Part shown: piece after piece, positions 2,427-53,066 of the stretch
How positions within the stretch are numbered: the stretch's first letter is position 1
Layout: the number at the start of each line of letters is the position of its first letter
Source: Eledone cirrhosa
Taxonomy: Eukaryota
Assembly: GCA_964016885.1 (NCBI GenBank)
Contig: OZ024746.1
Location: 36,270,001-36,334,000, forward strand
Direction of reading: 5' to 3'
Length of the DNA stretch: 64,000 nt
Made by a program: the position numbers and the translations under genes
The notes under the pieces: generated by a model
The model's database searches: none
The model's input: only the letters and a program-made list of their open reading frames with translations
Told to the model about the DNA's origin: nothing

Positions 2427-2669
2427 GAGAGAGAGAGAGAAAGAGTGCTGTTAAAATGTTGGGTAAATAATCTATAGCGGTTGGACGCGAAGCCGCTGCT
2501 GTGGCGTATTTATTTACTGTTTCTTCATAGGTGCCTTTTATTCTTATAGCCTGGTCTAATTGATTTTTTGTGTGGTTAATTATGCTGATTAGGAGTAGAT
2601 ATATTATCAAATAATTCTCTTTTCATGCTTTACTCTATTGTATTAGGCTCTGATTATTTAATTTATTAA

Positions 2670-2853
2670 AGCGGTGGATTGGCAGTATCAAGAGAGGGTC
2701 GGACGCCATGCTTTCCATCAGATTTACGTCCCTTTACGATCTGAGTTCAAATCGCGCCGAGATTGACTTTGCCTTTCATCCTTACGTGGTCGATAAAATA
2801 AAGTACCAGTAATGCACTGTGTAATTGCTGGCCATGTGCCTAAAATAGAAACA
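2670..2853 (+). mobile_element. tRNA-derived SINE, full length, with 17-bp TSD
   Basis: A-box-like TGGCAGTATCAAG, B-box GAGTTCAAATC, central GCCTTTCATCCTT..GTCGATAAAATAAAGTACCAGT. TSD ATTATTTAATTTATTAA at 2653-2669 and 2854-2870. Confidence 0.85.
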
Positions 2854-3001
2854 ATTATTTAATTTATTAATTCTTCATTGAGCCACATCGTGAATAGTTG
2901 CCAAAACGACATATATAGTTGGGATTTTGTTTAATTCGTGTATGTGTAAATATTTATATATATATATATATATTTTTTTTTTAATACACATATTTATATA
3001 C

Positions 3002-9777: not shown

Positions 9778-10019
9778 TATATACATACACATTTATATAG
9801 ATATATATATATAACTTTCTTTTATATATACCAAGTATATTATACATATTTATACGAATAAAACAGTTATGAAGAGATGCTGTCCATAGAGTTTCGGGTT
9901 AATCAGCTACCATTAATATATATATATATACATAAATATATATATATACTATATATAAGTATGTGTGTTTATGTATGTACGTATGTATGTGTGTGTATAT
10001 GTGTGTGTGTAGTAATAAT

Positions 10020-10111
10020 TGATTCTACTTTTGGCACAATGCTAGTAATTAACCAGTACATTACTGGTACTTTATTTTATCGACCCCGTAAGGATGAAAG
10101 GCAAAGTTAAC
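10020..10111 (-). mobile_element. SINE 3' fragment
   Basis: Matches the 3' half of the SINE at 2670-2853. Confidence 0.75.
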
Positions 10112-11516
10112 GTGTGTAGTAATAATAATGAAACAAAGCTGTCGAACATGACCGACAAATCATCGGTGGTATTCTCTCTCACTCAATAATACAACTAAAT
10201 CTGTTTTTAGAAGGCACAAACTCAATAATATTTACATACATAACGACACGTTAATCAGTGTGAAAAACATGATTTCGTGTGGGTAGGAACATCGATTTTC
10301 TGGCCCATGACCAATGCCTTATTTTATGTGACTTCATCTGCTAGTGGCAGTCCATGTGGATCTACAATGAGCAGCGATTGGGTAATGTTATTAAACATTA
10401 CTCAAATAGCTAGAATCACGTCTTCAGCAGCGATTAGATTCCCAGGAACGGACAGTTCCGCACAGCTATCCACCGCACCACTCCGATTAGCATCGGCTAG
10501 TGTAGTAGTAATCCCGGCTTCCATTGATACTTGACTTAACACCAATTCCTAAGTAAGTGTGTCCTGACCAATCATATGGAACACTTTACGTCAAATTGAA
10601 AACGTGAACAGGCAATAAATCACTCAACAAGAGGCTTCCATAGAGAAAGAAAAATAGTTATGAATAAATCAAACTACAATAGAGAAAATAAAAAAATTCC
10701 ACTTACAATGTCAATACGGCTTAATCCACTGCGAGTATAAAATAATAATGAAACGAAGCTTTCGAAAAGGACCGATACATATATAAATACATAGTTGTTA
10801 GAATGATTTAAATGCAAATTTCCCGCATGAAATCATTTTTAAATCAGCAATTGATCCGGTTTTCTGTTCTTGCGCTTGCAAGTGTCTTTTCTGTGAGCCT
10901 GTCCCTTTTTGCATTTCTCAACCATTAAAAAAATAATCAATATTTATATCATGAAATACTTGTTTTTAACCTTATTTCTTGTAACATATTTTATTTATTA
11001 AATTTTGAAAAATTTCAACATAAGCTGAATATCATTTTGTGAATAAAGTGTATTTTCTCTTTAAAAAAAAACGGTTTTAGTTCTGGCTTCACAAATATGA
11101 TTTTGAAATACCTTTTATTGGTAATTTATTTTACATTGTATTTCTTCCATGATGGAACATAATGAATATATATTCTTTTCTCTGAAAGAACCTATTCAAG
11201 AATAAAAAATGTCACATTGTTTTAATGTCAAAAGAAAATTGTTCCTCTATCTTAGAAATGATATTGAGGAAAGCTCCTAGAAAATGGTTAAAGAAAAATA
11301 GAATAATGCGAAACAGAGACACACATAGTTACACAAAAAACGCAAAGCATCATATGCCTACGCATTATTACTGGTTGGTCTACATATGCATTTTAGTCTA
11401 TCTGTACATGTAGGCTTGCACATCATGCAGTAATTTGAAGAAGTGTTGAATATGCTGTTGTTAAATAAATCTCATCTCTTCTGAGCAGTAGGCATGCTAC
11501 AATGAAAACGAAACGC

Positions 11517-15214: not shown

Positions 15215-15284
<70 letters not shown>

Positions 15285-24711: not shown

Positions 24712-25610
24712 TTAAGGTGTAAGCAAAAAATCGGTGCTTTCACCATTAACGTCGAGGTAATTAACGACCGAGAGGTTGGCCTCAACCTGTATAGAGAGGG
24801 CTGTGAGTTCTTTTCTGAACCTGTCGCAAGCACGAGGGCCGCATTTAGTCATGGTCAAAAGACCATCATCACGGTACAAACCACCGCCCGCGTTGGGGAG
24901 TTCGTCCTTGATAGAGAAAAGAAGGAAAAGTTCGATAAGATCAGTAACCTCCGCAGAATCGCTGGCGGCCATACTCACGTCGAATGGGGTACTATTGGAT
25001 GTTTTAATCCAAATAGAGTCGTCGAAATTAATCACCGAATTAAGGGCATTGAGGATGACATCAACTTCAAAATCCTTAACCACTGTGAGTGTTTTAGTGA
25101 AATGGATAGCTCTAAGGAGAAGTGGTAAAGTGATGGAGGAGTAGTAATTATTGATGTCGAATTGGATAAAAAAGCAATGTTCCTTGTTGGATATGCCGTT
25201 GAACCAAACAATCACCGCGAAAGAATTGTTCCATAGTGCAAGAGGGGCCACACCTCTAATTTCAGGTATAATTCTATCAAGAATCATTTTACTAAGTCTA
25301 CCTAAATCGGACTTCGTAGGGTTAATAAGCCGAATAGAGGGTTTTTTCGGAAAATTGGATTTGTGATCCTTCAGGATAAAGTGGGGAGAAATAGTGTCCA
25401 GAAGTTCGGTCCGGTCCAGGATGTTGAGATCAGAGGTGATTTTAAACCAAGCATCGTTGATTTGATTGATGACGCACCGATTAGTTTTACGGTAATCCTT
25501 AGTTACAGCATTATGTAGTAGTTGATGGTAAGTACTGCGCTCCACTTGATATAGGTTGCCAGTTTTGTCAGAATGGACGTGCACGGCTTTAGAATCCTTA
25601 ATAAAACGAA
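24712..25610 (-). pseudogene. PLE reverse transcriptase fragment (YRDD type)
   Basis: SDKTGNLY, RLINPTKSDLGRLSK, QFDINNYYSSI, FDVSM..SDSAEV, GLYRDDGL, VVNYLDV. Confidence 0.88.
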
Positions 25611-25619
25611 ACGCTCCTA

Positions 25620-25947
<328 letters not shown>

Positions 25948-26263: not shown

Positions 26264-26766
26264 TATATATATATAAATTGATTCGTGATATTTCAGTGAA
26301 ATCGGAAAAAGGAGGTTGAATTGAATTAGTTTCAATGCACATGCTATTTTCATCCGTATGTGGCTAATATTCAGTAACTCTGAATTTGAAAATTACAGAA
26401 TAATCCGGAGTTTGGAAATCAGATACACCTGTGATATATTACATAATAATAGTAATAATAACAGCACCAATAATAATACTATTAATAATAATAATAATAA
26501 TAATGATTTCTTTATTAACCACAAGGGTTTACATAAAGTAGACAGTAAGGACAGTGCAGGACAATGCAGGACGGTACAAATGGGCATTTCTGCGTGTAAA
26601 AAAACAAAAACAGAGGATGTAACAAAAATACCAATGAAAATAACAATGAAAAATTCCCCAATAGGGGGGAGACTTCGGAGGGACATTTGTGGAGAAAGCC
26701 CAGTAAAAAGCCACAATGACCCTGACCACCAAGGCAAGTGCCCTCTCCCAGTTTTCCACCTTTAGT

Positions 26767-29700
26767 TTACAGATATATACTCAGAGTCGGCCCATTCACT
26801 CGGGCCATTCTTGCTTCTCTCACCCATCTTTCAACAAAATGCTGGGAAGAGAGCACTTCCTTCTCTACTCTGATTTTCCTTTTCAAATGAAATTTGAAAA
26901 AGTCAATCAGAGCATCACCGAAGAGGTAAGTACTCGTCTTCAGCCCTTTCAAACGTGTCCACCATACTATCTCTTTCGCCATGGCCACCAGACAGATAAA
27001 AACTGCCTGCCCTTCCCGGCTAAAGGAGGAGGGCGGGGCAATCCTCACGATAGACTCAGATGATAGCTGGATCCGTCCTAAACGCGACAGCAGGTGTTCG
27101 ACATAAACCCACAAGTCAGCAATTTTCGGACACTGGACGAGTGCGTGCAGGACGGTTTCGTCGCCCTGCGCGCATCTCGGACATGCCCGGCTGACGGCAC
27201 CTCCATGCCTGTAGAGTTTATCCCGAACTGGCAAGGCTCCTCGGTAGCACTGCCAGGCCAGAGATTTCTGGAAGTTGTCCATAGGCCCTGGCCCGAAAGT
27301 TCTCCCGAAGAGATTGGCTAGTTGATTTTCGTCGACGCCTAGAGTTTCCCCAAGTACGTCGTCGCTCTTCCCCTCCACTAATCCTCTATAGAACGCCGAG
27401 GTGGAGTTTCCACCGATCACATTGCCCGATTGGTCGAGGGCTGTGAGCGCCTGAAGACATTCCAGTCTCCAGGCGCTCCCTCTCGGTCTTCGCTTGACCC
27501 AGGACTGCAGCTCCGTCAAGGAAACGAGCTGGGGAAAAACGCGTCTAGCAAACGGCGACCACACCTGATCACCGTCGAGGAAGAGGTGGAGATGTCGTAG
27601 CCTGAGCGCGTGCCTGCGCATCATCAGCCACGGCATGCCCAGCCCTCCACGTAGCGGGTGTTGACAACAGATGGACCGCCTGACCATCGGAGCACGTCCC
27701 TTCCACAAAAAGCGAAAGAGCAAACGCTCCAGCGCAGTCAGGCGAGGCTTAGGACAAGGTACGATGGTTAGGCGGTAGCAGATGACAGACGCGATGTACG
27801 CGTTAGCCACCTCCGCTCGACCTTTCAGGGATAGCTTCCTCTCCGCCCATTTCTGGGTGAGAGAAGCCACCCTGCTCGTCACCTCGTCCCAGTTTTTGTC
27901 CGTCTGGAGGTCCGGACCGAACCAGACCCCTAGCAATTTAACCGGTCCGTCCGTCCAGCGCCCGACGACGCTGTTGGACGGCATGGACCTGCCTCTCCAG
28001 GTGCCGAGCTGCAGGCCCACTGACTTTTCCTGGTTGATCATTGCTCCTGTCACCGCTTCGTATTCTCTTAGTGTAGTGCCGATCGCCTCGATGTGTTTGG
28101 CGTTCGACACCACTACGGTGATATCGTCCGCATATGCTGACACGGATCTTCCGCATCCTAGTTCGCGCGGGACTCCCCTCAACGTCTCCAGTTTGTGCAG
28201 TAATGGCTCGAGAGTCAATACGTACAAGAGGGACGAGAGGGGACATCCTTGGCGGACCGAGCGCATGATGTTGAACGGTTCCGACAGGTGACCGTTCACT
28301 CTCACTACAGAGCAGATGTCGCTGTGCATGGCAGCGATCCAGCCTCTGAAGACGGGCCCAAAGCCAGCCGCCCTCAGGACTGCCGCTAGGTAACGATGGT
28401 CGACCCTATCGAAAGCTTTCGACTGATCTAAATTGATCAAGGACCCACCCGTGCCAGGTTCCCTAGCTACCCTCTCTACGATGTATCGCATGAGGTGGAG
28501 GTTGTCGTGGATGGATCTGTCGGGAATGGCGCATGTCTGCGCCTCTCCCACCAGACCACCAACGACAAGCGCCAACCTCTTTGCTAGCACCTTGGCCAAA
28601 ATCTTAAACTCTGTGTTTAGCAGAGTTATGGGCCGGAAATTGTCTATGTTATCCCCCTTGTTCGCATCCTTTCTCAGCAGTGCCACCGCTCCTCGGCTCA
28701 CAGAACTGGGAATTCTCCCGTTCTGTTGCCAGTTGCAGTAGACGTCCGCCAAGAGGCCTCCGAACAAGTCTGGCATCTGTACGTAAAGTTCATAGGGCAG
28801 ACCATCCAAACCAGGCGATTTACCCCTTGTGCAGCCAGTCATTGCCTCCCGTACTTCAGCGGCTGTTATCGGCTTTTCGCAACACTTCGCCTCAGTGGCC
28901 GAGAGCCGCGGCAGTCCGTCGAGGTAGACACTAAAGTCCATCCCTCTACCCGGCCCCCCGCTGCCCCCGAACAGCTGAGCGAAGTGTCGCTGAAAAGCTT
29001 CACACATTTGCCCGGGATCGAGTAGCATGCGCCCGTCGTGGTCCACCAAAGACCGGATCGTGGCTTTGTTGCCACGACGCGCCTCCGCCACTCGGGCCCA
29101 TTGAACGGCTTTCGTCCCCTCGTGTCTGAGAGCACGCACCCTAGCTCTGACAACGCAGCCTTCGTGCTTTGCATTGAAGAATTGCTCAAGGGCCAATTTC
29201 GCCGCAAGCACGTCGGTCGCAATGCCTTTGCTAAGCGCCTCGTCTAATTTTCTAACTAGTTCTCCCTCTGCTCTATTTTTCTCTATTGCTAAAGCCTTAC
29301 TAAACCTAATCGATTCTATTCTAATCGCTCTTTTCAGAGCAAACCACCACTTGTTGTTGACGATGGCCCCCGTCAACGCCCGCTTAACTAGTTCGCTAAT
29401 CCGGTCTCTGTAGGCCTTGCGCGCTGGTAATGACGCGTTTAGCTTCCAGTAGCCGGGTCCTCGTCTATGAAGCCTATCTAAGTCAAGCACACAGGTCACG
29501 AATTTGTGGTCCGTGTAGCTGACTATCTTGAATTGTGGACAGCCTATGCTAGACCTATCTATTTCCCTACAAAATACTCTATCTAGATATGATCTGGATG
29601 ACCCTATGCGGTTTGTCCAAGTCCACATTGGCACATTCGGGAAATCCAATCGGTACCTGTCAGACAGTTCAAAACGCCTGAGCAGGTTGGTGAGGCTCTT

Positions 29701-30186
29701 GCACCCTCCACTCCTATCCGCTAATCCCACACAGTCCCAGCGTGCATCTAAGATCCCGTTCCAGTCGCCCACTAACACTAAAGAGCGGGACGTTCCAAGA
29801 AAGGTCTCCAGACGCCGGAAGAAATCAGGCCGCCCTGCTCCTGTCGGGGCATAGACGGCCACTAGCCTGAAAGCTTGCCCGTCTCCGCTGGTCACGTCCA
29901 GCACCACCAGCTTACCCTCTGGGTCCAGGAAGATGGCCCGTATGGCGAGATCCAAACCTCTCCGAAAAAGCACAGCAACTCCTCCACCCGATCCAGGACG
30001 GCTGGGAGATGCGTACACATCGTAGCCGCCGAAGATCGGTGCGAAGGCCCGTGCTTCGGAGATTCTGGTCTCGCTGATGGCCACTACATCTATGTTTAGT
30101 GACCTGAGGTCGTTGAGCAGGTGACCCTGCTTCCATGACGACCCCAAGCCACGCGCATTTATGCTGCCTATTCTGAGTGAGGTCAT
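26767..30186 (-). CDS. ORF2p, 1139 aa: APE endonuclease, reverse transcriptase, C-terminal CCHC
   Basis: SINARGL, SETR, VYAP, GDWN, YLDR, TDH; KSPGLDG, NFRPITLLN, DQSKAFDRVDH, VRQGCPLS, YADD; CPRC..ETVLHALVQC. Uninterrupted ATG-start ORF. Confidence 0.95.
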   Translation of the reverse strand: MTSLRIGSINARGLGSSWKQGHLLNDLRSLNIDVVAISETRISEARAFAPIFGGYDVYASPSRPGSGGGVAVLFRRGLDLAIRAIFLDPEGKLVVLDVTSGDGQAFRLVAVYAPTGAGRPDFFRRLETFLGTSRSLVLVGDWNGILDARWDCVGLADRSGGCKSLTNLLRRFELSDRYRLDFPNVPMWTWTNRIGSSRSYLDRVFCREIDRSSIGCPQFKIVSYTDHKFVTCVLDLDRLHRRGPGYWKLNASLPARKAYRDRISELVKRALTGAIVNNKWWFALKRAIRIESIRFSKALAIEKNRAEGELVRKLDEALSKGIATDVLAAKLALEQFFNAKHEGCVVRARVRALRHEGTKAVQWARVAEARRGNKATIRSLVDHDGRMLLDPGQMCEAFQRHFAQLFGGSGGPGRGMDFSVYLDGLPRLSATEAKCCEKPITAAEVREAMTGCTRGKSPGLDGLPYELYVQMPDLFGGLLADVYCNWQQNGRIPSSVSRGAVALLRKDANKGDNIDNFRPITLLNTEFKILAKVLAKRLALVVGGLVGEAQTCAIPDRSIHDNLHLMRYIVERVAREPGTGGSLINLDQSKAFDRVDHRYLAAVLRAAGFGPVFRGWIAAMHSDICSVVRVNGHLSEPFNIMRSVRQGCPLSSLLYVLTLEPLLHKLETLRGVPRELGCGRSVSAYADDITVVVSNAKHIEAIGTTLREYEAVTGAMINQEKSVGLQLGTWRGRSMPSNSVVGRWTDGPVKLLGVWFGPDLQTDKNWDEVTSRVASLTQKWAERKLSLKGRAEVANAYIASVICYRLTIVPCPKPRLTALERLLFRFLWKGRAPMVRRSICCQHPLRGGLGMPWLMMRRHALRLRHLHLFLDGDQVWSPFARRVFPQLVSLTELQSWVKRRPRGSAWRLECLQALTALDQSGNVIGGNSTSAFYRGLVEGKSDDVLGETLGVDENQLANLFGRTFGPGPMDNFQKSLAWQCYRGALPVRDKLYRHGGAVSRACPRCAQGDETVLHALVQCPKIADLWVYVEHLLSRLGRIQLSSESIVRIAPPSSFSREGQAVFICLVAMAKEIVWWTRLKGLKTSTYLFGDALIDFFKFHLKRKIRVEKEVLSSQHFVERWVREARMARVNGPTLSIYL

Positions 30187-30221
30187 GTTTAAAATAGAGT
30201 GGAAAAGATGGGAAAGACCAC

Positions 30222-32318
30222 TTACCGTACTTTTGGTAGAGGAGGGATGGTTTTTACATCCCTTTTCACTTGATCGTCTGGTGAAGGGACCGTTGAATCG
30301 TCCCTTCGGCTGGTCGTCGGCTCTTCTAAGAGAATGTCTGAGTATACTCTTCGATTGATGGTTCCTCCTAGGTCCCTGAAATCACCAACTGCGTTGGGGA
30401 ATTTCGTTTTAATGTTTGTGTATTGTTTCTGTGCTATTTTTAGCAGTCTTATGTTAGTTGGCGTTTTGATTGGTGCTGGTATTATGTAGTCCTGTTGTGA
30501 AATGTCTGTGTGTTCAATTATGTAAGTCATTAGTTTCTTGTTGTGTGTATTTATTGCCGTGCATTTGTTTTTCTGGGGGTGGGGTGTGGTTCTGCTATTT
30601 TCTTGTCGTTGTTGCTGGGTGTGTGTGTTTTGTTGTTGTGTTTGCGACGTTGGTGCTTGTGGTGGTGGTGTTGAAGGTGTTGTTGGCGGTGGGGTTGTCG
30701 CCGGTGGTGATGGTGGTGCTAGTGTGGGTGGTGATGGTGTTGGTGTTGTTGCTGCTGTGGGTCTCTTTGCAGTAGACTTTACCCTATTCTCATTTCTTTC
30801 CTCCCTTTTCAAAGGCGACGATGCGCTGCTTCTGCGTTTGTGCCTTCTTGCGACCTTTTGCCATCCCTCTCCCACCTCACACTCCATGTCTGATTCTGTG
30901 AGGTCGGGGAGGGGTACCAGCTCCACTCATTCACTTGTTGTTGTTGGTGATGTTTGCACTGGAGTCTCTGTTGCAGCTGCATTTGGTATTGCTGTTGTTG
31001 TTGTTAATATTTCCACTGCTGCTGCTGTTTTTGATTTCCGCGGCGTGGGTATGGGTGCCACGGACCTATCGTTCCTGGTTGCCGCTTGTCCTGTTGCTGG
31101 TAGCCGTGGAGCCGGATTCGGAAGGAGGGGGGTTTTCTCCTTTCTCAGGGTCTTCTCGTTGCAGAAGGCCCTGAGGTGAGTCTTCGATCCACAGCGAAAG
31201 CATTTCGGGCGTTTGCCCTCAACACTTATGGGCAGTTGAGTGCCGTTATCGAAGTCTATCACATCCGGGATAGCTTCGATGCACTCCTGGTTGGTTTGGA
31301 TTAGCTTCTCAATGGAGGAGCCGACCCAATCTTCTCTTACTTTTTTCTGTACTTGCAGTACAGTTGTTTTGTCCTCGATTCCGACGAGGACAGACGCGGC
31401 CAGCCAAGAAGGGGTCATTCCGGGGGGGACGTGGGTCAGTTTGACCCTCACAATTTTTTGCCCGCAGTAGGAGGGCACCAACACCATTTCCTCGCTCCTT
31501 AGGGTCACTACTGATTGGGCCTTTGCCTCCTGGGGTGAGGCAAAAAGTACGTCTACGGTGGCATATTTTTTGCCTCGGGTGATGTGCGTTTTCCGCTGCC
31601 ACACAGACCCCAAGGCTTTTTGTATTTGGGCCTCTGTGGCTCTTTCCACCCTACGGGATTTTGTACTTACTGTACGGTACGTGACCGTACAGTGCTCTTG
31701 GGTCTCGAAAAACTTTTCCGCTGCCTTGCAGATTGCTCGGTGTCCGTTCTTTGTCACCATCTTCTTCGCTTCCTCTAATTCCTCATTTGTTATGAGGATT
31801 GTTTCCAAGTTTTTCGCAATACCTGCAAATGAGATTAGTTTTTCTCTGCTGTTGTTGTTGTCGTCAGAGCTGCTGGTACTTTTGTTGTTGCTGCAGGTAC
31901 TACCACTACTGCCTCCGCCGCTGTTGCTGTGGTTGTTGTTGGTGTTGCTGCTGCTAATGCTGTTGTTGTTTATGTTGCTGGTGATGCTGTTGCGGCTGCT
32001 ACTGTTGTTTTCATTGTCACTGTTGCTGTTGTTATTACGGCTGCTACTGCTATTATTCCTGACGTCAGACGAATGAACTGGGTTTTCGTATTTCCCGCAC
32101 ACCTGTTTCGTCGCTGTCGTCGTCGTCGTGGAGAAACCTTGCACGCTTTGCACGAGACTTTTCTTTTCTTTCGTCACTTGCGAAAGAGAAGGGAGGGAGA
32201 GAGACACATTTAAAGAAGGGAGGGAGAGAGACAATCTTCTCTCTGCTGTAGTGATGATTGAGGAAGAAGAAGACGGAATGAGTGGGAGTGACGTATGAAA
32301 TTTCTTTTTCGTAGCCAT
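30222..32318 (-). CDS. ORF1p (gag-like, zinc knuckle) with a single in-frame TGA at 30927-30929
   Basis: ATG at 32318 (MATKKKF). CFRCGSKTHLRAFC knuckle. ORFs 30927-32354 and 30222-30926 abut in the same frame. Confidence 0.8.
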
Positions 32319-32559
32319 GTTGTTTTTTTGTTTAAAATGAAATTTTGGGTACAAAACCCCAATAACTGGTTATTTAACCCCGAAGGGCCAAATAACGGAC
32401 AGAAAGACCCCTCTCACGAGGAGGAGGGTGTCTTTATCAACAATTTGGTTCAAGTTTTAAACAATTTACAATTGTTTTAACGGTTAAAAATGACTATACC
32501 TTACAGAGCCGAGCCTCCGTCAACCATGGCATTCAATAATAATAATAATAATAATAATA

Positions 32560-35130
32560 AAATACAAAACTAGGAGGAAAATGCTAAATATTATCATAGA
32601 GGAACTGAAGCAACGCATTGTAGCAAAGAGTGCAAAAATCAGGCGATACGAGAACAGAGTCAGTCAGTATAAACAGAACCGCATGTTCTACAACAACCAG
32701 AAGATGCTGTTTGGACAGCTTGAGGGGAAAGAAAGAGGCAACGACTTGATCCCTGGGGCGGAGCAAACTAAAACATTCTGGAGAGGAATATGGGAGCAGG
32801 ATGTTAGACATAATGTCCAGGCAGGGTGGATTGAGACAGTACAGAGGGAGATCGGTGAGCAGGCACAACAACAAACTGATTTGAGTATCACAGTTGAAAC
32901 TCTTAAGGGGCAGGCCAAAAAACTAACCAACTGGAAATCACCAGGCCCAGATGGTGTGCAGGGGTATTGGATGAAACATTTAACATCCCTCCACCCGAAG
33001 CTGACGGCCATGTTCAATGACTGCTTGGTGTCGGGTGAGGTGCCAGAGTGGTTGACAAAAGGTACCACAGTTCTGATAATGAAAGACCGAATCAAGGGTA
33101 ATGATGTTACCAACTATAGACCTATAACGTGTCTGTCCGTAATGTGGAAACTGTTGACGAGCATTGTGTCTGAGGAAATCTACCATCACCTTGTTACCGG
33201 ACGAACAGAAAGGATGCCGAAAGAAGTCACGTGGTACAAAGGACCAGTTGCTTATTGATAAGATGGTAATGGGGAATTGCAGGAGGAGACACACTGATCT
33301 TGCTATGGGATGGATAGACTACAGAAAGGCATTTGACATGGTGCCTCATTCCTGGATCACCAAAAGCCTGGAGGTCTTCAGGGTGGCAGATAACATCAGA
33401 CAGTTGCTGGGCAGGAGTATGGGGTCCTGGGAGACAGAGTTGACATCAACTGGAGTATCCTTGGGAAGCGTGAAGATCAAGAGAGGTATCTTCCAGGGAG
33501 ATAGCCTGTCCCCTCTGTTGTTTGTCCTTGCCCTGATGCCCTTGACCATTATGCTGCGAAAAGTGAGAGCAGGATACAAGTTGGGAAGGGGAGAGCTTAC
33601 CATCAATCACCTCCTCTTCATGGACGATCTTAAGCTCTTCGGGAAAAGTGAGAAGGAGTTGGATGTGCTTGATGACACTGTCCGTATTTTCAGCAGTGAT
33701 ATATGTATGCAGTTTGGTATTGGTAAATGTGGAGTCATTGTGATGAAGAGGGGTAGGTTGAGCAGAAGTAACGGGATCCAGATACCAACAGGTGAGATGA
33801 TAAAGGAAATTGACTCTGAGGAAGGATACAAGTATTTGGGCGTTCTGGAGGCTGATGGCATAAAGAACAAAAAAATGAAGGAATTGTTAAGAACTGAATA
33901 CATTCGGAGAGTAAGGAGCGTATTGAAGTCACATCTGAACAGCAGAAATGCCATAAGCGCAGTAAATTCCCGAGCTGTGTCTATTATTAGGTACAGTGCG
34001 GGAATTCTGAGATGGAATGTTGCTGAAAAAAAGAAATGGATAGGAAGTCTGGGAAGCTATTGACTATCTACAACATGTTCCACAAGAGGAGTGACGTCGA
34101 TAGACTCTACCTAAGGAGATGTGAGGGTGGAAGAGGTCTTATCAGAATAGAGGACTGTGTTCAGATGGAGAAAAACAACCTACACACATACGTGACTGAT
34201 AGTAAGGAGCCAATGCTCAGAACTGTACTGAAGGAGGGGACAATAGGCCAGGGGATGTCCAAGGAGGAAATAACATCAAGGAGAAAGAGCAGCCTTCAGG
34301 AAAAATCCCTTCATAGTACCTTCTTTGAGAAAACTGAATTTAGAGTTCCACAGACATGGAACTGGTTGAGAAGAGGAGACCTTAAAAAGGCTACAGAAGG
34401 AATGTTAATGACTGCGCAGGGGCAGGCCCTCAAAACGAAGTGGTTGAAACACCGTATTTACAAGGAGGAGGCTAGCCCACTGTGCAGGATCTGTGGAGAG
34501 AGAGAGGAGACTGTGGCTCACATTGTATACGAGTGTAAACACCTAGCCCAGACCCACTATAAGGGCTGGAGACATGATGTGATGGGCAGGGTGATCCACT
34601 GGCACCTGTGCAAAGAAAAACAATTCACCACATTCTGAGAAATGGTATGAGCATAAGCCAGAGGCGGTGATGGAGAACGATCATGTGAAGGTGCTGTGGC
34701 ATTTTAGGATACAGACGGACAAGAAACTGGAACACAATAGACCTGACCTGGTGGTTGTGGACAAAGAAAAAAGATCGTGCCTGATTGTGGATGTGGCCTG
34801 CCCGTTCGACACGAGAGTGCAAGAGAAGGAGAGGGAGAAAATTAACCGATACCAGGACCTAAAGTGGGAGGTGAAAAGGATTTGGAACTGCCATGAAGTC
34901 AAAGTGATCCCGATTGTCATAGGCACACTGGGGACTATCTCCAAAGGTTTCCAGGGATGGTTAAAGAAAATCGGCCCCTTCACGCTTTTTGGAACGCTTC
35001 AAAAGGCATGCTTGCTTGGAACAGCAAGAACCCTCCGATACGTCCTGAATATCTGAGGCTGCATGTAGTGGCTTGATATTCAATCCAACGGACTTTCCAG
35101 TTAACCAACATCAATGACTGAGATTCAAGG
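32560..35130 (+). mobile_element. 5'-truncated, frameshifted R4/Dong-like non-LTR element (RT, CCHC, RLE endonuclease)
   Basis: [45 protein letters not shown]; CRICGEREETVAHIVYEC; RHD; RPDLVVVD..DVACP..KINRYQDL. (AAT)n tail. Confidence 0.9.
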
Positions 35131-35446
35131 AATAACAATAACAATAATAATAATAATAATAATGATTTCATTTATTAGCCACAAGGGCCGACATGTAGGG
35201 GACAATACAAAGACAGGGACAGTGGGGGCTTACAATAAGGTCGAGTAAAAGTGCACAATGGCAAGACTAATTTAACAATGAAAATATAAAATATAAAATA
35301 TAAAATAAACTATGCAAAATATAACAAAATATATTCCCCGATAGGGGGTCGACGACCCTGGGGTGATTCGGGTACCCCACCAATCCTGAACCACCCTGCG
35401 CTTCTAGGGCACCAAGGAGCGCACCCCATTCCTCAAGTTAGCTAGC

Positions 35447-38400
35447 CTATAGGCGCATGGTCAGAGTAGGCCCATTCACACGAGCCATTCTCGCCACATT
35501 CACCCACCTTTTAGCAAATGTACGGGGGGAAGCACTTCTCTCTCCACCCTCACCCTCCTTTCCAGGTGAAACTTGAAGAAGTTGATGAGGGATTGGCCGA
35601 AGAGAAAAGTGTCTGTCTTTAGTCCTTTCAACCTGGTCCACCATATAATCTCTTTCGCAACTGCCACCAGACAGAGGAAAATGTCCTGCTCTTCCTGACC
35701 TAAGGAAGGTGGCGGCTCGATCGTCACTATGGACTCGGCCGATAACTGGATTCGTTCCACACGCGACAGTAGCTGTTCGACATAACTCCACAAGTCAGTA
35801 ATGCACGGACATTGGACAAGTGCGTGCAGAACGTCGTTCTGTGCGCATCTTGGGCAGGTCCGTCTGACAGCACTTCCGTGCCTGTAGAGTTTATCCCGAA
35901 CCGGCAGTGCCCCCAGTAGCATTGCCAAGCGAGGGATTTCTGGATATTGTCCATCGTCCCCGGCTCAATAGTCCTCCGGTACAGACTGGTCAGTTCGACT
36001 TCGTCGAGGCCCAAAGCTTCTCCGAGTGCGTCATCGCACTTGCCCACCACTAATCCTCTATAGAACTCGAGAGTGGAAGTTACACTGATCGCATTGCCCG
36101 CTTGGTAGAGGGCAGTGAGTGAAGGCAACATTCCAGGTGCCAGTCACCCAGTCTCGGTCTCTTCTTGAACCAGGACTGCAGCTCAGTCAAAGAAATGAGC
36201 TGCGGAAAGGCCCGTCTGATAAACGGCGACCACACCTGTTCACCATTGAGGCAGAATATCTGGAGATATCGCTGCTTCAACGCATGTCTGCGCATCATTA
36301 GCCACGGCATGTCCAGCCCTCCGCGTAGAGGGTGCTGGCAGCAGATGGACCGCCTCACCAACGGAACTTGTCCCCTCCACAAGAATTTGAAGAGGAGCCG
36401 TTCCAACTTGACGAGGCGCGGACGGGGGCAAGGCACGACGGTTAGGCGGTAATAGATGACGGACGCGATGTACGCATTCGCCACCTCCGCGCGACCTTTC
36501 AGTGATAGCTTCCACCCAGCCCACTTTTGGGTGAGACTGGCTACTCTGCTCGTTACCTCGTCCCAATTCTTTTCCACCTGGAGGTCTGGTCCGAACCAAA
36601 CCCCGAGCAACTTTACTGGTCCGTCCGTCCAGCGCCCCACGACGCTGTTGGACGGCATGGGCTTGCCTCTCCAGGTTCCGAGCTGCAAGCCCACCGACTT
36701 TTCCGGGTTTAGTTTGGCTCCTGTCAACCTTTCATATTCCTTCAATAAGGTGCCGACCACCTCGATTTCTGAGGTGTTCGACACCATCACGGTGATGTCG
36801 TCCGCATAAGCCGACACCGCATTTCCACGTCCCGGTTCGAGCGGGATGCCCTGCAACAGCTCCAGCTTCCGCAGTAAAGGCTCGAGAGTCAATACGTACA
36901 GAAGGGAAGAGAGAGGGCACCCTTGACGAACCGATCGGGAGAGCGGAAATGGTTCCGAGAGGTGGCCATTAACCTTGACCACCGAGCGTGTGCCGCTGTG
37001 CATTGCAACGATCCAGCTTCTAAAGACAGGGCCGAAGCCAGCTGCTTTGAGGACAAACTCCAGATACCGATGGTCGACCCTATCGAATGCTTTCGATTGA
37101 TCTAAATTGATCAGTGCCCCACCGAAGCCAGGTTTACAACCTACCCTCTCTATGATGTATCGCATGAGGTGGAGATTGTCGTGTATGGACCTGGCTGGGA
37201 TTGCGCAAGTTTGCGCCTCCCCAACCAAATCCTCGACGACAAGCGCCAATCTCTTTGCTACCACCTTGGCCAAAATCTTAAACTCTGTGTTGAGCAGAGT
37301 TATGGGCCTGAAGTTGTCTAATGTATCCCTCTTGTTCTCGTCTTTCCTTATCAGCGTCACCACTCCCCTGCTCACAGAACTGGGAATACTCCCATTATGC
37401 TGCCAGTTACAGTAGAGTGATTCGAGGAGTTCGGAGAACAAGTCTGGCATATTTACGTAAAGCTCGTAGGGCAGGCCATCCAAGCCGGGTGACTTGCGCC
37501 TCATACAGCCGACAAGGGCGTCCTGAATTTCGGCTGAAGTAATCGGCCTTTCGCAGCGCTCAGCGTCAACCGTCGAGATGCGCGGCAAGCCGTCAAGGTA
37601 GGGACTGAAATCCGCTACTCTCTCTGACTCGCCACTCTCCCTGAACAACCGAGCAAAGTGCTGGCGAAAGGCCTCACACATCCGCTTGGAATCGCTTATC
37701 TCGTGTCCGTCTCGGTCCGCCAAAGACCGAATTGTGGTTTTATTACCACGTTGCGCCTCCGCCACGCGGGCCCATCGAACAGCTTTAGTTCCCTCGTTTC
37801 TCAGCGCACGCGCCTTAGCTCTGACAATGCAACCTTCGTGTTTGGCATTGAAGAAATGGTCTAATGCCATTCTCGCCGCTAGCACGTCAGTTGCGATGCC
37901 ACTACAAATAGCCTCGTCTAACTTATCTACCAGCTCCCCCTCCTTTCTATTTTTCTCTAACGCTAGTTCTTTGCTGAACTCTATCGAAGTTACTCTAATC
38001 TCTCTTTTGAGAGCCCCCCACCATCTGTTGTTGATGATCCCCCCTGTCAACTTGTGCTTAACTAACTTATTGACTCGGTCCCTGTAAGCCTTACGTGCCG
38101 GAAATGACATGTTCAGCTTCCAGTAACCAGGTCCTAACCTACGCGTTTTATTTAGGTCGACCGTACAGATCACAAATTTGTGATCTGAATAGGCGACCGT
38201 TTTAAAAAGTGGACAGCCCACACTATTTCTATCTATTTTCCTAATGAAGATTCTGTCTATATACGATCTAGATGACCCCATTCGGTTGGTTCATGTCCAT
38301 ACTGGCACATTGGGGAAATCTAGTCGATACCTGTCAGACAGTTGGAACTGGCTGAGTAGGTGCTTGAGGCTTTTGCACCCCCCGCTCCTATCGGCTACTC

Positions 38401-38871
38401 CCACACAATCCCAGCGTGCGGGATTGTGTGGGAGATGCCATTCCAGTCCCCCGCTAACAGTAAAGGGCGAGACGTACCCAGAAAGGTCTCCAGGCGCCTA
38501 AAGAAGTCAGGTCGTCCGGCCCCTGTAGGTGCGTAGGCGGCCAGCAGTCTAAAGGCACCACCTTCGCTACTGCTTACATCCAAGACCACCAACTTACCGT
38601 CCGGGTCCCGGAAGATCGACCTTACCTCGAGATCCAGTCCTTTCCTAAACAGCACTACCACCCCACCCCACCCCCATTCCCGGCCTGCTAACAGATGCGA
38701 AGATCTGATAGTCGTCGAAAATGGGGGTTAGTGCACGCGTGTCGGAAATTCTGGTCTCGCTTACGGCAATCACATCCATTTCCAGCGACCGGAGGTCGTT
38801 GAGCAGGCGACCCTGCTTCCAGGGTGACCCCAGGCCGCGAAATTTAAACTTCCTACTCTTAATATGGCCAT
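35447..38871 (-). pseudogene. ORF2 (APE-RT-CCHC) with several frameshifts
   Basis: ORF pieces 38395-38661, 36080-38281, 35727-36131, 35500-35928 and 35447-35791 are collinear with the intact ORF2. Confidence 0.9.
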
Positions 38872-38880
38872 ATTGGTAAG

Positions 38881-40858
38881 CTAAGAGAGAGAGAGGGAAG
38901 GTTTACTTACCTCCCGGGTCTTGTGAAGGTCGGGTGGTTCGACCTCCATGGTTGGTGGGGTTTCTTTTGGGAACCCCTTTAAAAGTCTTGATGTGGGTTT
39001 CACATTCGGGTTTCCCACGTCTTGAGGAAAGCTCTCTCGAATTTCTTTGAAGGAATTGAGTGACATTCGGACCAGAAGCAATTCGTCTGGCTCGCAAAAT
39101 GTGCTCATTTCAAAAATCTCCCCCTCTGTTTGAATGTCCTCGCTTCGCGCTAAGAGGGCCATGAGTTTATCGTTGGCCCTTCTGACAAGCACGAAGTTTT
39201 TAACATTTTGTTGGTGTGGTTTTATTTGTTTTCGTTTTGGTGAAGGTGGTGGCGATGGTTTTGGTGGTGTTGTTTCGGGTATGTCTATGTTTGTTGGAGG
39301 TGTGGTGTCTGCAATTTCAGGTATTTGTGTGTTTATTTGTACTTGTGTTTGTTTAGGTTGTTTGCGTTTCGGGGATTGTGGAGGTGGTGTTGATGTTGCT
39401 GATGGTGCTGATGTTATTGGGGAAGTGTCTGCGTTAGTGGTGTCTGTATTTTTTGTTGTGTGTGTTTTTGTGTTTTGTAGGGGCTTTTTTTTTTGTGAGT
39501 TTTCTCTGTTTTTTTTGCACTTTTGGGTTTTCCTTCATCTTCACTGCTGGAAGACAAAGGGTCTGTGTCTGTGAGTGTCTCTGTGTCTGTGTGTGCGTTT
39601 ATTCTTTTTTTGTCTATGTATATAGTTGTGGGGGGGGGGCAGGGGGAGTGGGAGAGCTTTCCTCGTTTACTCCTTGGATTGGTTTTGGTGTTGGTGGTGA
39701 TCCGGCTGTTTTTGATGTTGGTGTCCGTGTTTTTGTTGATGTTGTTTTTGGTGGTGGTGGTGGTGCAGCTTTCCGTGCTGACACTGGCGTTGGCAACAAA
39801 GGAGGTTTGCGAGCCCCTGCATTTTTGTGCTGAGAGCAGAAGGCTTGAAGATGCGTGGCTTCCCCGCAAACGAAGCAGCGTGGCCTTCTTCCGTCAATCA
39901 TTAGTTGGATTGTTGTCCCGTCCTGCAGGCGGGCAAAATCTGGGATGTTATTTATATCCTCCGGTTTCATTTGGAGAAGAATTTCCAAATCCATTCCGGA
40001 CCAGTCTTCTCTCTCTGTCCTTTTGATGTCCAGGAGGGTGGTGTCTGTCCCCTCCTCGATTACGCATCCCAGCAGCTACCATATGTTCATTCCTGGTGGG
40101 ATGCTGGGAATGCGTACATTCACTGTCCTTTTACCCATGTAGGACGGATGCATGATAATGCGTTCCGTTCTGCAGGGGATCACCGAGTGCTTAATAGCGA
40201 GGGCCTCGGATTTGAACAGTACCGAGATGGTACCGAACTGTTTGCCTCTTGCTTTGTACTCTATGTTACTTCCGATGTACTCCAAAGTAGCCTCTACCTC
40301 TGCTTGGCTCGCAAGTTCCACTTTTCGTGTCTGCACCGAAATACATCGAAACAGCACCGTCCTCCTTTGCATGGCCGCCATTGCCTCGTCCGGGATGGTC
40401 AGGTTTGCCCAGGACTTCTCCCGTTTAATTAGCCTCCACGCTTTGGCCAACTGTTCGTCTTTATCGCTAATATCAATATCGATATTCAATAAGCGCTTTG
40501 TTTTTGCTGCTGCAGCAAATGTGGTGTTTCTGATGCTCTTATTGTTGTTGTTGTCATTCTTGCTGTTTCCACCGCCATCCTTGTTTACATTGAAGCTGTC
40601 GGTGTTTTTGTCGTTATTGCTCTGAGTTGTTGTTGTTGTGGTGGTGGTGGTGGTGGCGGTGGTGGTGATGTCGTTTTCAGATGATACTGCTGCTATGCCA
40701 GAAGGTTGTGATGGTAGCTTTTTAGTTTTGCCTTCACATTCAGTAGAGTGGATGACAGGCATGACTGTAGCCGTCGTAGTCGTGGTGAAATATGCAGTAG
40801 CTGCCTTTAAACTTTTGAACTGAACGTTGTTTACCGTTTCAAGGTCGAAAATTTCCAT
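38881..40858 (-). pseudogene. ORF1 (gag-like) with frameshifts
   Basis: Pieces 40076-40858, 39614-39994, 39414-39869 and 38881-39192. RGKQFGTISVLF and zinc-knuckle similarity to the first ORF1. Confidence 0.8.
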
Positions 40859-41108
40859 AATTTTCTTTTGGTGGGGAAGCGATTTTTTTTCGAAGATTTT
40901 AAAAATAAATCTGAATATTCGGGCTTAAAGCCCGAATATTGAGAGTTATCCCTCTCTTTAAATCAAGATGTGTACCTTAAGTTTCGTTAATGACAAGAAA
41001 ATACAAAAAAAAGACACTTTAAAACAGCTTAAAGCTACGAACCTTTTCCCCCGCAGACTTGTCTGTCTTCACACATGTGCGGCCATAATAATAATAATAA
41101 TAATAACA

Positions 41109-42246
41109 ATTGGATTATCTACATATCTAAGGGAATCACATGATTGGATGATCAAACTCGTTTTGAAACACGAAAGCATCAAAAGATCATATTCCATTAC
41201 AAAAGATGCACAAAGATACAGTAATGGACTACACATTTCAGAAGTCCCATTTACTGCTGAAATGGAAAACACACAAAAAGCAAAGCAGGTAAAAGTAACT
41301 GCAAAGAAAGAACTGCTACAGAAACTGGCTAAGAAATGGCAAGAAAAGCCTCTGTATGGAAAATACCCAGAGCGAGCTAACAATCCTGATGTTGACAAAA
41401 CTTTAACCCATCAGTGGTTGGCATCCTCTGGACTGAAATCGGAGACTGAAGGACTGATTATATCGGCACAAGATCAGTGTCTGCCAACAAAAAATTACCA
41501 AGCCAACATAATAAAAAATGGGTGCAGCCCATTATGCCGTATACGCAAAAAACAAACAGAGACCATTGATCATATAATTTCAATGTGCAGTCCTATAGCT
41601 CCAACCGAATACCTAAACAGGCATGACAGAGCTGCACAATACATACATTGGATAATGTGTAAGCATTTTGACCTGCCCCATCAAAAGAATTGGTGGGAGC
41701 ATCAACCACCTCCCATACTTGAAAAATATCACATCTCAATCTTGTGGAACTTTAGCATCCAAACAGACCGAAAAATAGATGCAAACAGACCTGATATAAT
41801 ATTGAAAGACTTCCAAAAGAGGGTATGCCTGCTAATTGATATGTCTGTTCCAATAGACAAGAATGTATCTATAAAAACATTTGAAAAATTGAGCAAGTAT
41901 AAGGACCTGGAGATAGAAATTGGAAAAATGTGGAAATTGAGAACTAAAACAATACCAGTGGTTGTAGGCGCTCTGGGAATGATACCTAAGGGGTCTAATG
42001 ATTACATATCGCAAATCCCAGGAAACCCGCGTATAGGAGAAATACAAAAGATAGTACTAATGGGAACTGCCCATATACTAAGGAAGATTCTGTCAATATA
42101 AGTACATCACAAGTCTAAACACTAAAGATGCATGTGTGAATATGTATGTTCTTTCTTGAACATGGCGGACCTTGATGTCTATTGAGGTCACTGGTTGTGA
42201 CTTGGTGATAACTCGTATGAACATAAAGCAAGATAAATGCAACTGT
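41109..42246 (+). mobile_element. 5'-truncated R4/Dong-like element (second subfamily): C-terminal zinc finger plus RLE
   Basis: LKSETEGLIISAQDQ, ETIDHIISMC, RHD, RPDIIL..LIDMSVP..KLSKYKDL, PVVVGALG. (AAT)n at both ends. Confidence 0.88.
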
Positions 42247-42267
42247 AATAATAATAATAATAATAAT

Positions 42268-42513
42268 TGGAACTGCCATGAATTCAAGTTGTCTCGATTG
42301 TCATAGGCGCACTAGCTACTATCTCAATGAGTTTCCAGGGATGGTGAAAGAAAATTGGTCCCGCCCCGCTTTTTGGAAATTTCAAAAGGCATGCTTGCTG
42401 GGTACAGCAAGAAATCTCAGATACGTCCTGAATATCTGAGGCTGCAGGTAGTGGCTTGGTATTCATTTCAACAAACTTTCCATTTAACCAACATCAATGA
42501 CTGAGACACAAAG
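42268..42513 (+). mobile_element. 3' fragment of the first R4/Dong-like family
   Basis: Matches 34881-35130 (TTGGAACTGCCATGAA...CATCAATGACTGAGA). Confidence 0.85.
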
Positions 42514-42546
42514 AACAATAATAATAATAGTTATTTTAATAATAAT

Positions 42547-42732
42547 TGTTTCTACTTTTGGCACAAGGCCATAAATTACCCAGTGCATTACTGGTACTTT
42601 ATTTTATCGACCCCGTAAGGATGAAAGGTAAAGTTAACCTCGGCGGGATTTGAACTCAGATCATAAAGGGAGGTAACTCTATGCTACAAAGCATGGTGTC
42701 CGACCCTCTACCAATACTGCAAATCCACCGCC
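42547..42732 (-). mobile_element. tRNA-derived SINE with 17-bp TSD
   Basis: Same family as 2670-2853. TSD GTTATTTTAATAATAAT at 42530-42546 and 42733-42749. Confidence 0.88.
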
Positions 42733-42767
42733 GTTATTTTAATAATAATGAAAATAATAATAATAAC

Positions 42768-42804
<37 letters not shown>

Positions 42805-43113: not shown

Positions 43114-43486
43114 CCTAAGTCCATAGAATCATTTCCTCTCCCAATTAGCATAAAACCACACACACAATTACTTATATTATATTGCTCTGATTATTTAATT
43201 TATTACTTCTTCATTGAGCCACATCGTGAATGGTTGCTAAAACATATATATATATATATATGTGACTTTGTTTAGTTTGAATATGTAAATCTTTATATAT
43301 ATATATATGCCTCCTACGTGTGAATCAGTGAAAATGATACACTGTCTTCTAGTTTGATCAGAGCTCTATACTTGAAACATGAAATATACATTATCTCAGA
43401 ACATTGCGAGGTTTATGCTGGTGATGACTTTATGACTGCGCTTGTATTCCTATGTAAATATATCTTGGAGTAATAAAAAAGTGATG

Positions 43487-45157: not shown

Positions 45158-45580
45158 TAGGAGGTGAGTTTTATTGTAGTACAATAAAGCAATGCAGATA
45201 TCGGATAAGAAGCACTCTACAGTTTGTAGGACTGGAGTATACATAATATATAAGATCAAAAGATGGTTAAAGGAGTTCCATGTATTTTATTATGCGCATT
45301 TCAAAAACAAACATCATCATGCAATAATATTTGTGTTTTCATCAGATAAAACAGGAGAACATGATATGAAGGCTAAAAAACACTTGTGGGTAGTGCAGTT
45401 TTAAATCAACATATCATATTATGTTGATTTAAAACTGCACTATCCACAAGTGTTTTTTAGCCTTCATATCATGTTCTCCTGTTTTATCTGATGAAAACAC
45501 AAATATTATTGCATGATGATGTTTGTTTTTGAAATGCGCATAATAAAATACATGGAACTCCTTTAACCATCTTTTGATCT

Positions 45581-45590
<10 letters not shown>
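45156..45590. mobile_element. PLE family B terminus with near-perfect fold-back
   Basis: Arms 45243-45413 and 45420-45590. Homologous to 16478-16733. Confidence 0.85.
45482..45548 (+). ncRNA. Type I hammerhead; mirror copy at 45285-45351 on the minus strand
   Basis: TTTTAT-CTGATGA-long stem II-GAAA-TGCGCA-TA-ATAAAA. Perfect 6-bp stem I, palindromic stem III. Confidence 0.8.
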
Positions 45591-45634
<44 letters not shown>

Positions 45635-49395: not shown

Positions 49396-49456
<61 letters not shown>

Positions 49457-51182: not shown

Positions 51183-51185
51183 TAT

Positions 51186-53013: not shown

Positions 53014-53066
<53 letters not shown>

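Follow-up and report, generated by a model that had tools for sequence, protein, structure and literature searches.

The window analysed in this work is a 64-kb stretch of DNA from Eledone cirrhosa. At positions 26443-42771 it holds a stack of two Tx1-like LINEs (minus strand), three R4/Dong copies (plus strand) and one SINE (minus strand), whose boundaries with the (AAT)n tracts around them were read by eye from the sequence. Such a tract lies at all seven boundaries of the stack (7/7). The original tract at the left end (26443..26504) is degenerate at first and then pure, with (AAT)7 at 26484-26504, and adjoins the 3' end of the first LINE, Tx1-A. An (AAT)8 tract (32535..32559) runs from the 5' end of Tx1-A to the 5' end of Dong-A, whose tail meets the tail of the second LINE, Tx1-B, in a tract made of two AAC variants followed by (AAT)7 (35131..35163). 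The 5' end of Tx1-B is joined to Dong-B by the tract at 41085..41105, with (AAT)6 at 41087-41104, and Dong-B to a Dong fragment by (TAA)7 at 42246..42267. The tail of this fragment, together with the first copy of the 17-bp target duplication of the SINE (42530-42546), occupies 42514..42546, and the second copy (42733-42749), together with the degenerate right end of the original tract, occupies 42733..42771; all these tracts are given as read on the plus strand.

An earlier note on this DNA had proposed the order and the strands of the elements, and the sequence, the translated frames and the domain matches agree with it. Its statement that no element interrupts another was borne out by our reading of the boundaries over the whole stack, and at this locus the APE elements and the SINE do read the tract as (ATT)n and the RLE elements as (AAT)n. 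Since each tail pairs with one strand, this fixed polarity is largely a consequence of that pairing and not a separate surprise. The motif (AAT)4 is matched 24 times in the window, while 0.17 matches are expected from shuffles. All 24 matches are on the plus strand and 22 of them are at the seven boundaries of the stack; the other two, at 58323 and 58866, belong to a 543-bp tandem repeat, and (AAT)4 tracts make up about 24 of the 47,700 bases outside the stack.

The Tx1-like LINEs

Tx1-A (26505..32534, minus strand) is a full-length LINE of the L1 group, with a 5' UTR of about 215 nt and a polyA signal immediately before its (ATT)n tail. Its ORF2 (26767..30186, minus strand) is open over 1139 aa and encodes an N-terminal APE endonuclease, an RT and a C-terminal zinc finger of the zf-RVT type (Pfam PF03372, PF00078 and PF13966), which is the architecture of the L1 group; its best PDB match is human L1 ORF2p (E 8e-53), against E 2e-21 for R2. 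ORF1 (30222..32318, minus strand) encodes a CCHC knuckle and an RNA-binding region resembling that of ZCCHC3, and has one in-frame stop near 30927. This stop is private to the copy in the window, since the X6 and X1 read contigs listed at 30929 all differ from it, and in other public read runs the coverage of the Tx1-A family extends to the 5' end. Tx1-B (35164..41084, minus strand) represents a second full-length subfamily, frameshifted in this assembly, and its ORF2 is 75% identical to that of Tx1-A over 721 aa. Both copies have the two-ORF organisation, with homologous ORF1 products that fall in CCHC and ZCCHC3-like clusters (0.91-0.94). Several of the frameshifts in the stack are single-base indels that are absent from most reads, and they may be assembly errors. 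We call these LINEs Tx1-like, a provisional label resting on the architecture, the CCHC ORF1 and motif likeness; the sequence searches returned no named Tx1 reference.

The PDB search with the Tx1-like ORF1 gave no match below E 0.07, a literature search for a link between ZCCHC3 and Tx1 found no paper, and the APE domain, folded from its sequence alone, gave a model too poor for use (pLDDT 38.8).

The R4/Dong copies

Dong-A (about 32560-35130, plus strand) is a 5'-truncated R4/Dong-type element with several frameshifts, in which the RT is followed by a CCHC knuckle and a restriction-like endonuclease. Dong-B (about 41106-42245, plus strand), also 5'-truncated, is open over its C-terminal ~330 aa, with a zinc knuckle and the same type of endonuclease; it belongs to a distinct subfamily, with a different 3' UTR and 41% aa identity. 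The Dong fragment (42268..42513, plus strand) consists of the last ~250 bp of the Dong-A subfamily, and the two are closely alike over these 250 bp. Both Dong-B and the fragment join their tract through a microhomology of 2-6 nt. Motifs in the alignment reveal RT, CCHC knuckle and a PD-(D/E)xK endonuclease in that order, and no APE domain. The RT is closest to R2 proteins (E 4e-15) and the alignment profile matches only R2 proteins; a PDB search with the Dong-B C-terminus alone gave no match. The R4/Dong assignment is a putative one, made from motifs and RT similarity.

The three Dong copies of the window (3/3) are inserted in a TAA repeat, which their sense strand reads as (TAA)n. The preference of Dong for such repeats, taken as established in the earlier note, was described at the Bombyx mori Dong junction, which has the same polarity and the same kind of target (PMC3774820) and which the stack fits. 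In public reads, the 15,685 loose read ends that follow Dong 3' ends have an (AAT)n consensus (agreement 0.55), and at other loci there are at least five Dong-(AAT)n-Dong junctions. In Octopus vulgaris, Dong-R4 elements occur in abundance and have been active recently (PMC13282606).

SINE copies and the shared 3' hairpin

The SINE of the stack (42547-42732, minus strand) is 186 bp long, ends in an (ATT)n tail and is flanked by a perfect 17-bp target duplication, from which it follows that its insertion site was the degenerate part at the end of the tract. It is one of five copies in the 64 kb, and the family is short, non-coding and dispersed, with a repeat tail and target duplications. Duplications were found for three of the five copies (17, 15 and 17 bp) and all three start with ATTATT; the remaining two copies have no recognisable duplication. 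Two of the three duplicated copies lie outside microsatellites. One is at 2653..2870 on the plus strand, with a 17-bp duplication (2653-2669 and 2854-2870), and the other is a 5'-truncated copy at 10005..10126 on the minus strand, whose insertion site, marked by a 15-bp duplication, has no more than three ATT units. A tRNA-derived head was sought, and ARAGORN gave 0 genes and Rfam no match over the stack copy, the Rfam search yielding chance-level matches only.

The 3' end of the SINE contains a small hairpin (42559-42571) that is also present in both LINEs. In Tx1-A it has a 4-bp stem and a 5-nt loop and lies 12 nt before the tail (26517..26529, minus strand), and in Tx1-B (35177..35189, minus strand) the same loop is held by different stem pairs. 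The SINE has this loop as well, with compensatory changes in the stem, and its 3' end, aligned in the same register, agrees with those of the LINEs at 14-15 of 22 positions. The same 4-bp hairpin was found unprompted by RNAalifold. Three of the four pairs are altered on both sides and 21 of 24 cells can pair, a covariation that comes from three lineages only; as many cells paired in 4 of 500 shuffles, and controls slid along the alignment scored 0.00-0.28 versus 0.55 for the hairpin. The hairpin folds weakly (z-scores -0.74 to +0.85), its 4-bp form being part of the best fold in two of six sequences and a 3-bp form in one of six. The stretch shared by SINE and LINE 3' ends is short, about 25 nt.

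These 3' ends suggest that the SINE is probably mobilised in trans by the Tx1-like lineage. Target duplications measure 7-18 bp in the L1 group and 7-15 bp, mostly 10-12, in RTE elements (PMC6007223), and the 15-17 bp seen here are a better fit to the L1 group. An RTE element as partner is ranked lower because of these lengths and because of the match to the Tx1-like 3' ends. Of the 900 SINE families with recent activity in O. vulgaris, whose genome consists of SINEs to 11.6%, 893 have no classification (PMC13282606); in the literature searched, no partner LINE for an octopus SINE was found. The hairpin common to the SINE and both LINEs and the SINE duplications starting with ATTATT are new here.

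Proposed target choice of the Tx1-like LINEs

Both Tx1-like copies of the window (2/2) have pure (ATT)6-8 at both ends. Since the 5' ends are included, the 3' tail alone is insufficient as an explanation. Furthermore, a randomly inserting 6-kb element would almost never enter a 30-bp tract without cutting a neighbour. The Tx1-like 3' end matches the window twice, both times in the stack. By the criterion of PMC4494074, a Tx1 family is target-specific when more than 20% of its copies are flanked by one kind of repeat; here the ATT repeat flanks 2/2 copies, in a sample of one window selected for this stack. Scans of genome contigs and viral contigs found no further Tx1-like copies. The metagenome scan returned 80 distant relatives (best-segment identity 22-48%, mostly on short contigs), none of them with (ATT)4, which is uninformative on this lineage. 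In public reads, a second junction between a Dong tail and a Tx1-B tail is present at another locus. Loose read ends at 29183, 34839/34840 and 36387 coincide with AATT cut sites or adjoin them, and were set aside as ligation chimeras of the RAD library; a read joint between 29024 and 34983, at the other cut site, was rejected as well. Read run X12, which lacks the locus, gave 280 reads, almost entirely from a low-complexity stretch rich in GGT, and runs X4 and X5 (shares 0.08 and 0.06) were left out of the read analysis.

We consider it likely that two unrelated target-primed retrotransposition machines repeatedly hit one (AAT)n microsatellite from opposite strands, with a graded preference for ATT and with the SINE moved in trans. 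R4/Dong, with its restriction-like endonuclease, would insert as published, the sense strand reading (TAA)n. The shared hairpin and the ATTATT at the start of the SINE duplications lead us to infer that an octopod Tx1-like lineage (APE, at least two subfamilies) probably nicks the AAT-reading strand at an ATT seed. The nicked 3' end (...AAT) would pair with the (AUU)n tail of the Tx1-like RNA, and the other strand would be cut about 15-17 nt further on, so that the Tx1-like sense strand then reads (ATT)n on both sides. The RT may recognise the small hairpin just before the tail, and the SINE, having the same hairpin and tail, could be mobilised in trans by this lineage. Tail and duplication would together leave at least five repeat units on each side of every insertion, and in this way the target would be rebuilt and the elements would align without cutting each other. 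Target regeneration by each insertion, proposed in the earlier note, indeed follows from tails and duplications. As for an APE family converging on (AAT)n from the opposite strand, which the note also put forward, the full-length copies with ATT at both ends support it at this locus. The SINE copies with ATTATT-starting duplications outside microsatellites suggest that, in place of strict microsatellite specificity, a short ATTATT seed may be sufficient, long pure tracts being hot spots. At present ATTATT occupies 172 of the ~128,000 strand positions of the window, 44 of the 172 within the stack tracts. Under a seed-only preference, the chance of two copies in these tracts is ~1-6% (hand estimate), which selection of the window can absorb. 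A preference of the whole family would be extrapolated from two LINE copies, in a window chosen for its stack, and the tract at the 5' end of each Tx1 copy doubles as the 5' flank of a Dong.

A related and unlikely account needs no dedicated microsatellite-specific endonuclease: the (AUU)n RNA tail would mostly choose the site, by pairing with whichever AAT end had been nicked, and the endonuclease would have a loose preference for A+T, a scheme put forward for RTE-related elements. Microsatellite-like 3' tails have been linked to the first bases of duplications (PMC6007223), RNA-DNA pairing can act as a filter on nicked sites (PMC1950540), and for two of the three SINE duplications the site has no more than 2-3 ATT units. 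This account differs from the targeted nicking that we prefer in degree. Against it, both LINE copies are in pure tracts of at least six units, and no other 3' end of the family is present in the window.

More doubtful still is that the Tx1-like elements have an (ATT)n 3' tail and no target preference, Dong aiming at tails and pre-existing tracts and chance doing the rest. Dong targeting is established (PMC3774820, PMC1635306), and Dong insertion into Tx1 tails predicts the tail-to-tail read junctions just as well as our preferred mechanism does; it explains the 5,765 molecules that end at an AATT site in the Tx1-B 3' UTR with the first mate upstream. However, tails alone cannot yield pure 5' tracts on two of two full-length copies, and they leave the ATTATT-starting SINE duplications unexplained. 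The contact of Tx1-A, Dong-A and Tx1-B requires at least one Tx1 landing in a 30-bp tract, for which a hand estimate gives ~5e-4 for each random insertion in 64 kb.

That the 5' (ATT)n is integral to the element (a read-through transcript copy), or that the stack arose in the assembly, by joining across short repeats, is very improbable: both Tx1-like subfamilies do begin directly after the repeat, the single-base indels are present and no read contig spans the stack, but an integral repeat would still need targeted landing to give zero interruptions, the stack SINE has a true duplication, and the same kinds of junction occur at other loci in independent reads.

Relation to known elements

Tx1-clade specificity for other microsatellites, mentioned in the earlier note, has precedents in PMC4494074. 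Kibi and Koshi (Tx1 clade, teleost fish) and crocodilian Tx1 families are, like the LINEs of the stack, APE-type elements of the L1 group that insert into microsatellites, their targets being (TC)n, (TTC)n, (TTCC)n and (TTTC)n (PMC4494074, PMC3812793). In contrast, the LINEs of the stack are those of a cephalopod, and their probable target, (ATT)n, contains no C and is common with an RLE element. No ATT-targeting Tx1 was found in the literature searched, Repbase being outside this search. The Dong copies resemble Dong of the R4 clade (B. mori, Anopheles, Biomphalaria) and Rex6, in which an RLE element sits in TAA repeats with (TAA)n upstream on the sense strand (PMC3774820, PMC1635306), and bring nothing new save a tract common with oppositely oriented APE elements.

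Similarly, in crocodilians a Tx1-group LINE, Tx1-Mar, mobilises a SINE, SINEU, with the same target preference. That link was drawn from a shared transposon target and 5' heads (PMC4494074), whereas here it comes from the 3' hairpin and tail and concerns an ATT-repeat target. Bivalve SINEs with CR1/L2 and plant Au SINEs with RTE also have a LINE-like tail and a conserved stem-loop with compensatory changes (PMC4824008, PMC6007223); unlike these stringent pairs, the partner here would be an L1-group, Tx1-like element and the shared stretch is about 25 nt.

A wider scenario, which we regard as possible though somewhat short of probable, is that octopods harbour a still-active Tx1-like lineage whose APE specifically targets (ATT)n and which shares every AAT microsatellite with Dong, each clade building landing pads for the other genome-wide, and that a major octopus SINE family is driven, unrecognised so far, by this lineage through a conserved 3' hairpin. 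If so, one enzyme would link the expansion of the SINE with the load of AAT microsatellites in octopod genomes, (ATT)n would join the known targets of Tx1-type LINEs, and the locus would be a clear case of APE and RLE endonucleases converging on one repeat from opposite strands. The LINEs of the stack provide a candidate partner for an octopus SINE, and the stacking offers a proposed mechanism for transposable element hot spots in cephalopod genomes.

With the almost intact, recently active Tx1-like copy, both the choice of target and the recognition of the hairpin can be tested directly, and the copy would add a natural APE specificity to the set available for studying endonuclease targeting. 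In the L1 endonuclease, the loop T192-S202 is a target determinant (PMC1950540). The loop aligning with it has nine residues and a GS(S/A)R core in both Tx1-like copies of the window, and this form recurs in the three close relatives that cover it (3/3), while it is different in four relatives with 38-41% identity.

Results and Discussion

Our re-reading of the window sequence bore out the element order, strands and junctions described in the earlier note for the stack (26443-42771), in which two Tx1-like LINEs and a SINE on the minus strand, and three Dong copies on the plus strand, lie among seven (AAT)n boundaries. (AAT)4 has 24 matches in the 64 kb versus 0.17 expected; 22 of them fall at these boundaries and two in an unrelated tandem repeat. 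The tracts at the two outer edges are degenerate, those between them pure; from this we infer that the stack began as an old microsatellite of ~100 bp whose pure middle was struck repeatedly. At 58135-59655, a ~543-bp tandem repeat with one partly inverted copy carries (AAT)4 in every full unit, none of them struck by an element.

Tx1-A (26505-32534, minus strand) has an open ORF2 of 1139 aa with APE, RT and zf-RVT domains, closest among solved structures to human L1 ORF2p, and an ORF1 with a CCHC knuckle and a ZCCHC3-like region. The single ORF1 stop is missing from the 37 contigs of public run X6 and the one contig of run X1 that are listed at that position, so the family is probably intact; with 12 mismatches to an X1 contig over 1516 bases, Tx1-A is young. 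Tx1-B (35164-41084, minus strand), a second subfamily with 75% identity over 721 aa, is frameshifted in the window, and several of its single-base indels, missing from most reads, may be assembly errors. The name Tx1 is presumed from element architecture and motif likeness. The window has the look of octopod DNA: an ORF2 relative in Argonauta hians shows 58% identity, and a short piece of an Octopus sinensis tectonic-3-like protein model is 64% identical to the Tx1-like ORF2, suggesting TE exonisation or a gene-model error. In runs from several organisms, 39-73% of the words of 26520-36400 are present. Two proteins filed under Escherichia coli (P0131, P0143), 64-74% identical to this ORF2, are probably animal DNA contaminating bacterial assemblies. 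The Tx1-B 5' UTR contains a perfect ~14-bp hairpin (40893-40964), noticed in an Rfam alignment, and a short inverted repeat near 32340-32400 in the Tx1-A 5' UTR resembles it.

The three plus-strand copies carry RT, CCHC and RLE motifs, and their profile matches are to R2-type proteins only; we take them to be Dong/R4 from architecture and motif likeness. Between Dong-B and an X1 contig there are 17 differences in 1116 bases, so the periods of activity of the two clades roughly coincide. Published accounts describe Dong insertion in TAA repeats (PMC3812793, PMC1635306, PMC3774820), and the Dong share of the stack is already known. The recently active LINEs of O. vulgaris include Dong-R4 (1129 insertions) and L1-Tx1 (421 insertions) (PMC13282606).

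Are the ATT repeats at the Tx1-like copies only tails? Pure (ATT)6-8 lies directly 5' of both copies, an ATT repeat also lies 3' of both, and each 5' tract doubles as the 5' flank of a Dong. From the contact of Tx1-A, Dong-A and Tx1-B it follows that at least one Tx1 copy landed inside a ~30-bp tract, an event of ~5e-4 per insertion were landing random within the window (hand estimate); there is thus good support for a Tx1-like preference for the ATT repeat here. The earlier interpretation, that both clades target one (AAT)n tract with fixed polarity, is partly supported, by the preference at this locus of two LINE copies with tracts at both ends, and is extended below. The polarity itself follows from the tails, with (TAA)n along the Dong sense strand and (ATT)n along that of the Tx1-like copies; the B. 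mori Dong 5' junction has sense (TAA)n in the same polarity as the window copies (PMC3774820). A preference for an ATT seed alone is possible for the LINEs, since 44 of the window's 172 ATTATT sites now lie within the stack (hand count).

The SINE can serve as a reporter. Only the stack copy (42547-42732, minus strand) of the five in the window is within a microsatellite. Target duplications are perfect in three of the five (17, 15 and 17 bp), each starting with ATTATT, which occupies 172 of ~128,000 strand positions; none is recognisable by inspection at the other two. These lengths are nearer those given for the L1 group (7-18 bp) than for RTE (7-15 bp, mostly 10-12) (PMC6007223). Over its final 25 nt the SINE agrees with the Tx1-like 3' ends at 14-15 of 22 positions, and the register to the tail is kept (chance ~1e-4 to 5e-4, a post hoc hand estimate). 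RNAalifold gave one common 4-bp hairpin for six SINE and LINE 3' ends, with a 5-nt loop identical in four of the six and three of four stem pairs changed on both sides. In it 21 of 24 cells pair, a value reached by 4 of 500 shuffles, with slid controls lower. Against the hairpin, no more than three lineages contribute to the covariation, the method carries a warning that kinship by itself may outscore shuffled sets, and folding each sequence singly did no better than shuffles. Mobilisation of the SINE by the Tx1-like LINE is, in our judgement, likely, and if true, a short ATT seed suffices for the machinery and long tracts are hot spots. The flank (2854-2910) of the SINE copy at 2672 recurs without a SINE at 43190-43250, apparently an empty copy of the target inside another repeat.

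The L1 loop T192-S202 is presented as a determinant of nicking preference (PMC1950540). In the aligned Tx1-like loop a single residue sets Tx1-A and Tx1-B apart; the loop keeps its length and core in the three close relatives that cover it and is different in four aligned relatives at 38-41%; this would fit one common target for the lineage and proves nothing alone. We propose that the Tx1-like APE nicks the AAT-reading strand, that the freed ...AAT end would pair with the (AUU)n RNA tail, that RT held at the 3' hairpin would copy the RNA, and that a second cut 15-17 nt off would yield a duplication of five to six units. Dong insertion would be the mirror image, by its RLE. As every event would add a tail and a duplication, the target would stay usable on both sides and elements would line up unbroken. 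The observations behind this proposal are the anatomy, domains, flanks, SINE duplications and common 3' end.

Four of 19 listed runs were compared, and one of them, X12, lacks the locus. Run X17 comes from a RAD library, with read starts at all four GCATGC sites of the compared stretch and ends at AATT. Some 142,000 molecules start within Dong 3' ends; 15,685 loose ends past the Dong end have (AAT)n as their consensus, at an agreement of 0.55. A Dong end is linked through the repeat to a different 5'-truncated Dong by five joints (201-305 reads each), and in another (148 reads) a fragment-like Dong end meets the 3' end of Tx1-B. Such stacks therefore occur repeatedly in the sequenced organism's genome. 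Within the Tx1-B 3' UTR, 5,765 molecules terminate with the first mate upstream; if one locus yields at most ~300 reads, they would come from ~20 or more loci, the first mates' identity aside. The reads fit equally well Tx1 targeting the repeat and Dong targeting Tx1 tails.

The Tx1-clade microsatellite targets named in the accessible parts of two sources are TC, TTC, TTCC and TTTC (PMC4494074, PMC3812793), in contrast to ATT here; SINEU is there described as a Tx1-driven SINE (PMC4494074). The literature searched, in part, named no Tx1 family with an ATT, AAT or TAA target, and Figure 3 of PMC4494074 lists further targets; it is quite possible, if at a guess the less probable case, that Repbase already records ATT for one. 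The same literature held no account of Tx1 and Dong in one common tract and no partner LINE of an octopus SINE. An ATT-preferring Tx1-like lineage on the strand opposite Dong, with a probable partner SINE, appears new; its basis is two copies of the LINE and the target duplications of three SINE copies.

Elsewhere in the window, a 5.4-kb near-perfect palindrome (48499-53961; arms 90-98% complementary, 118-nt spacer) has ORFs that look like inverted copies of a Penelope-type RT/endonuclease; Pfam gave nothing at E 0.01 for three pieces of the region. Weak matches to RVT_1 and GIY-YIG at 719-1666 (plus strand) and to RVT_1 at 24712-25656 (minus strand) point to Penelope-like remnants, the latter stopping just short of AT tracts that precede the stack. 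Three long inverted repeats, at 3117-4683 (463 nt, 100%), 14984-15547 (282 nt, without spacer) and 45238-45595 (176 nt), suggest inverted Penelope-type or MITE-like elements among AT tracts.
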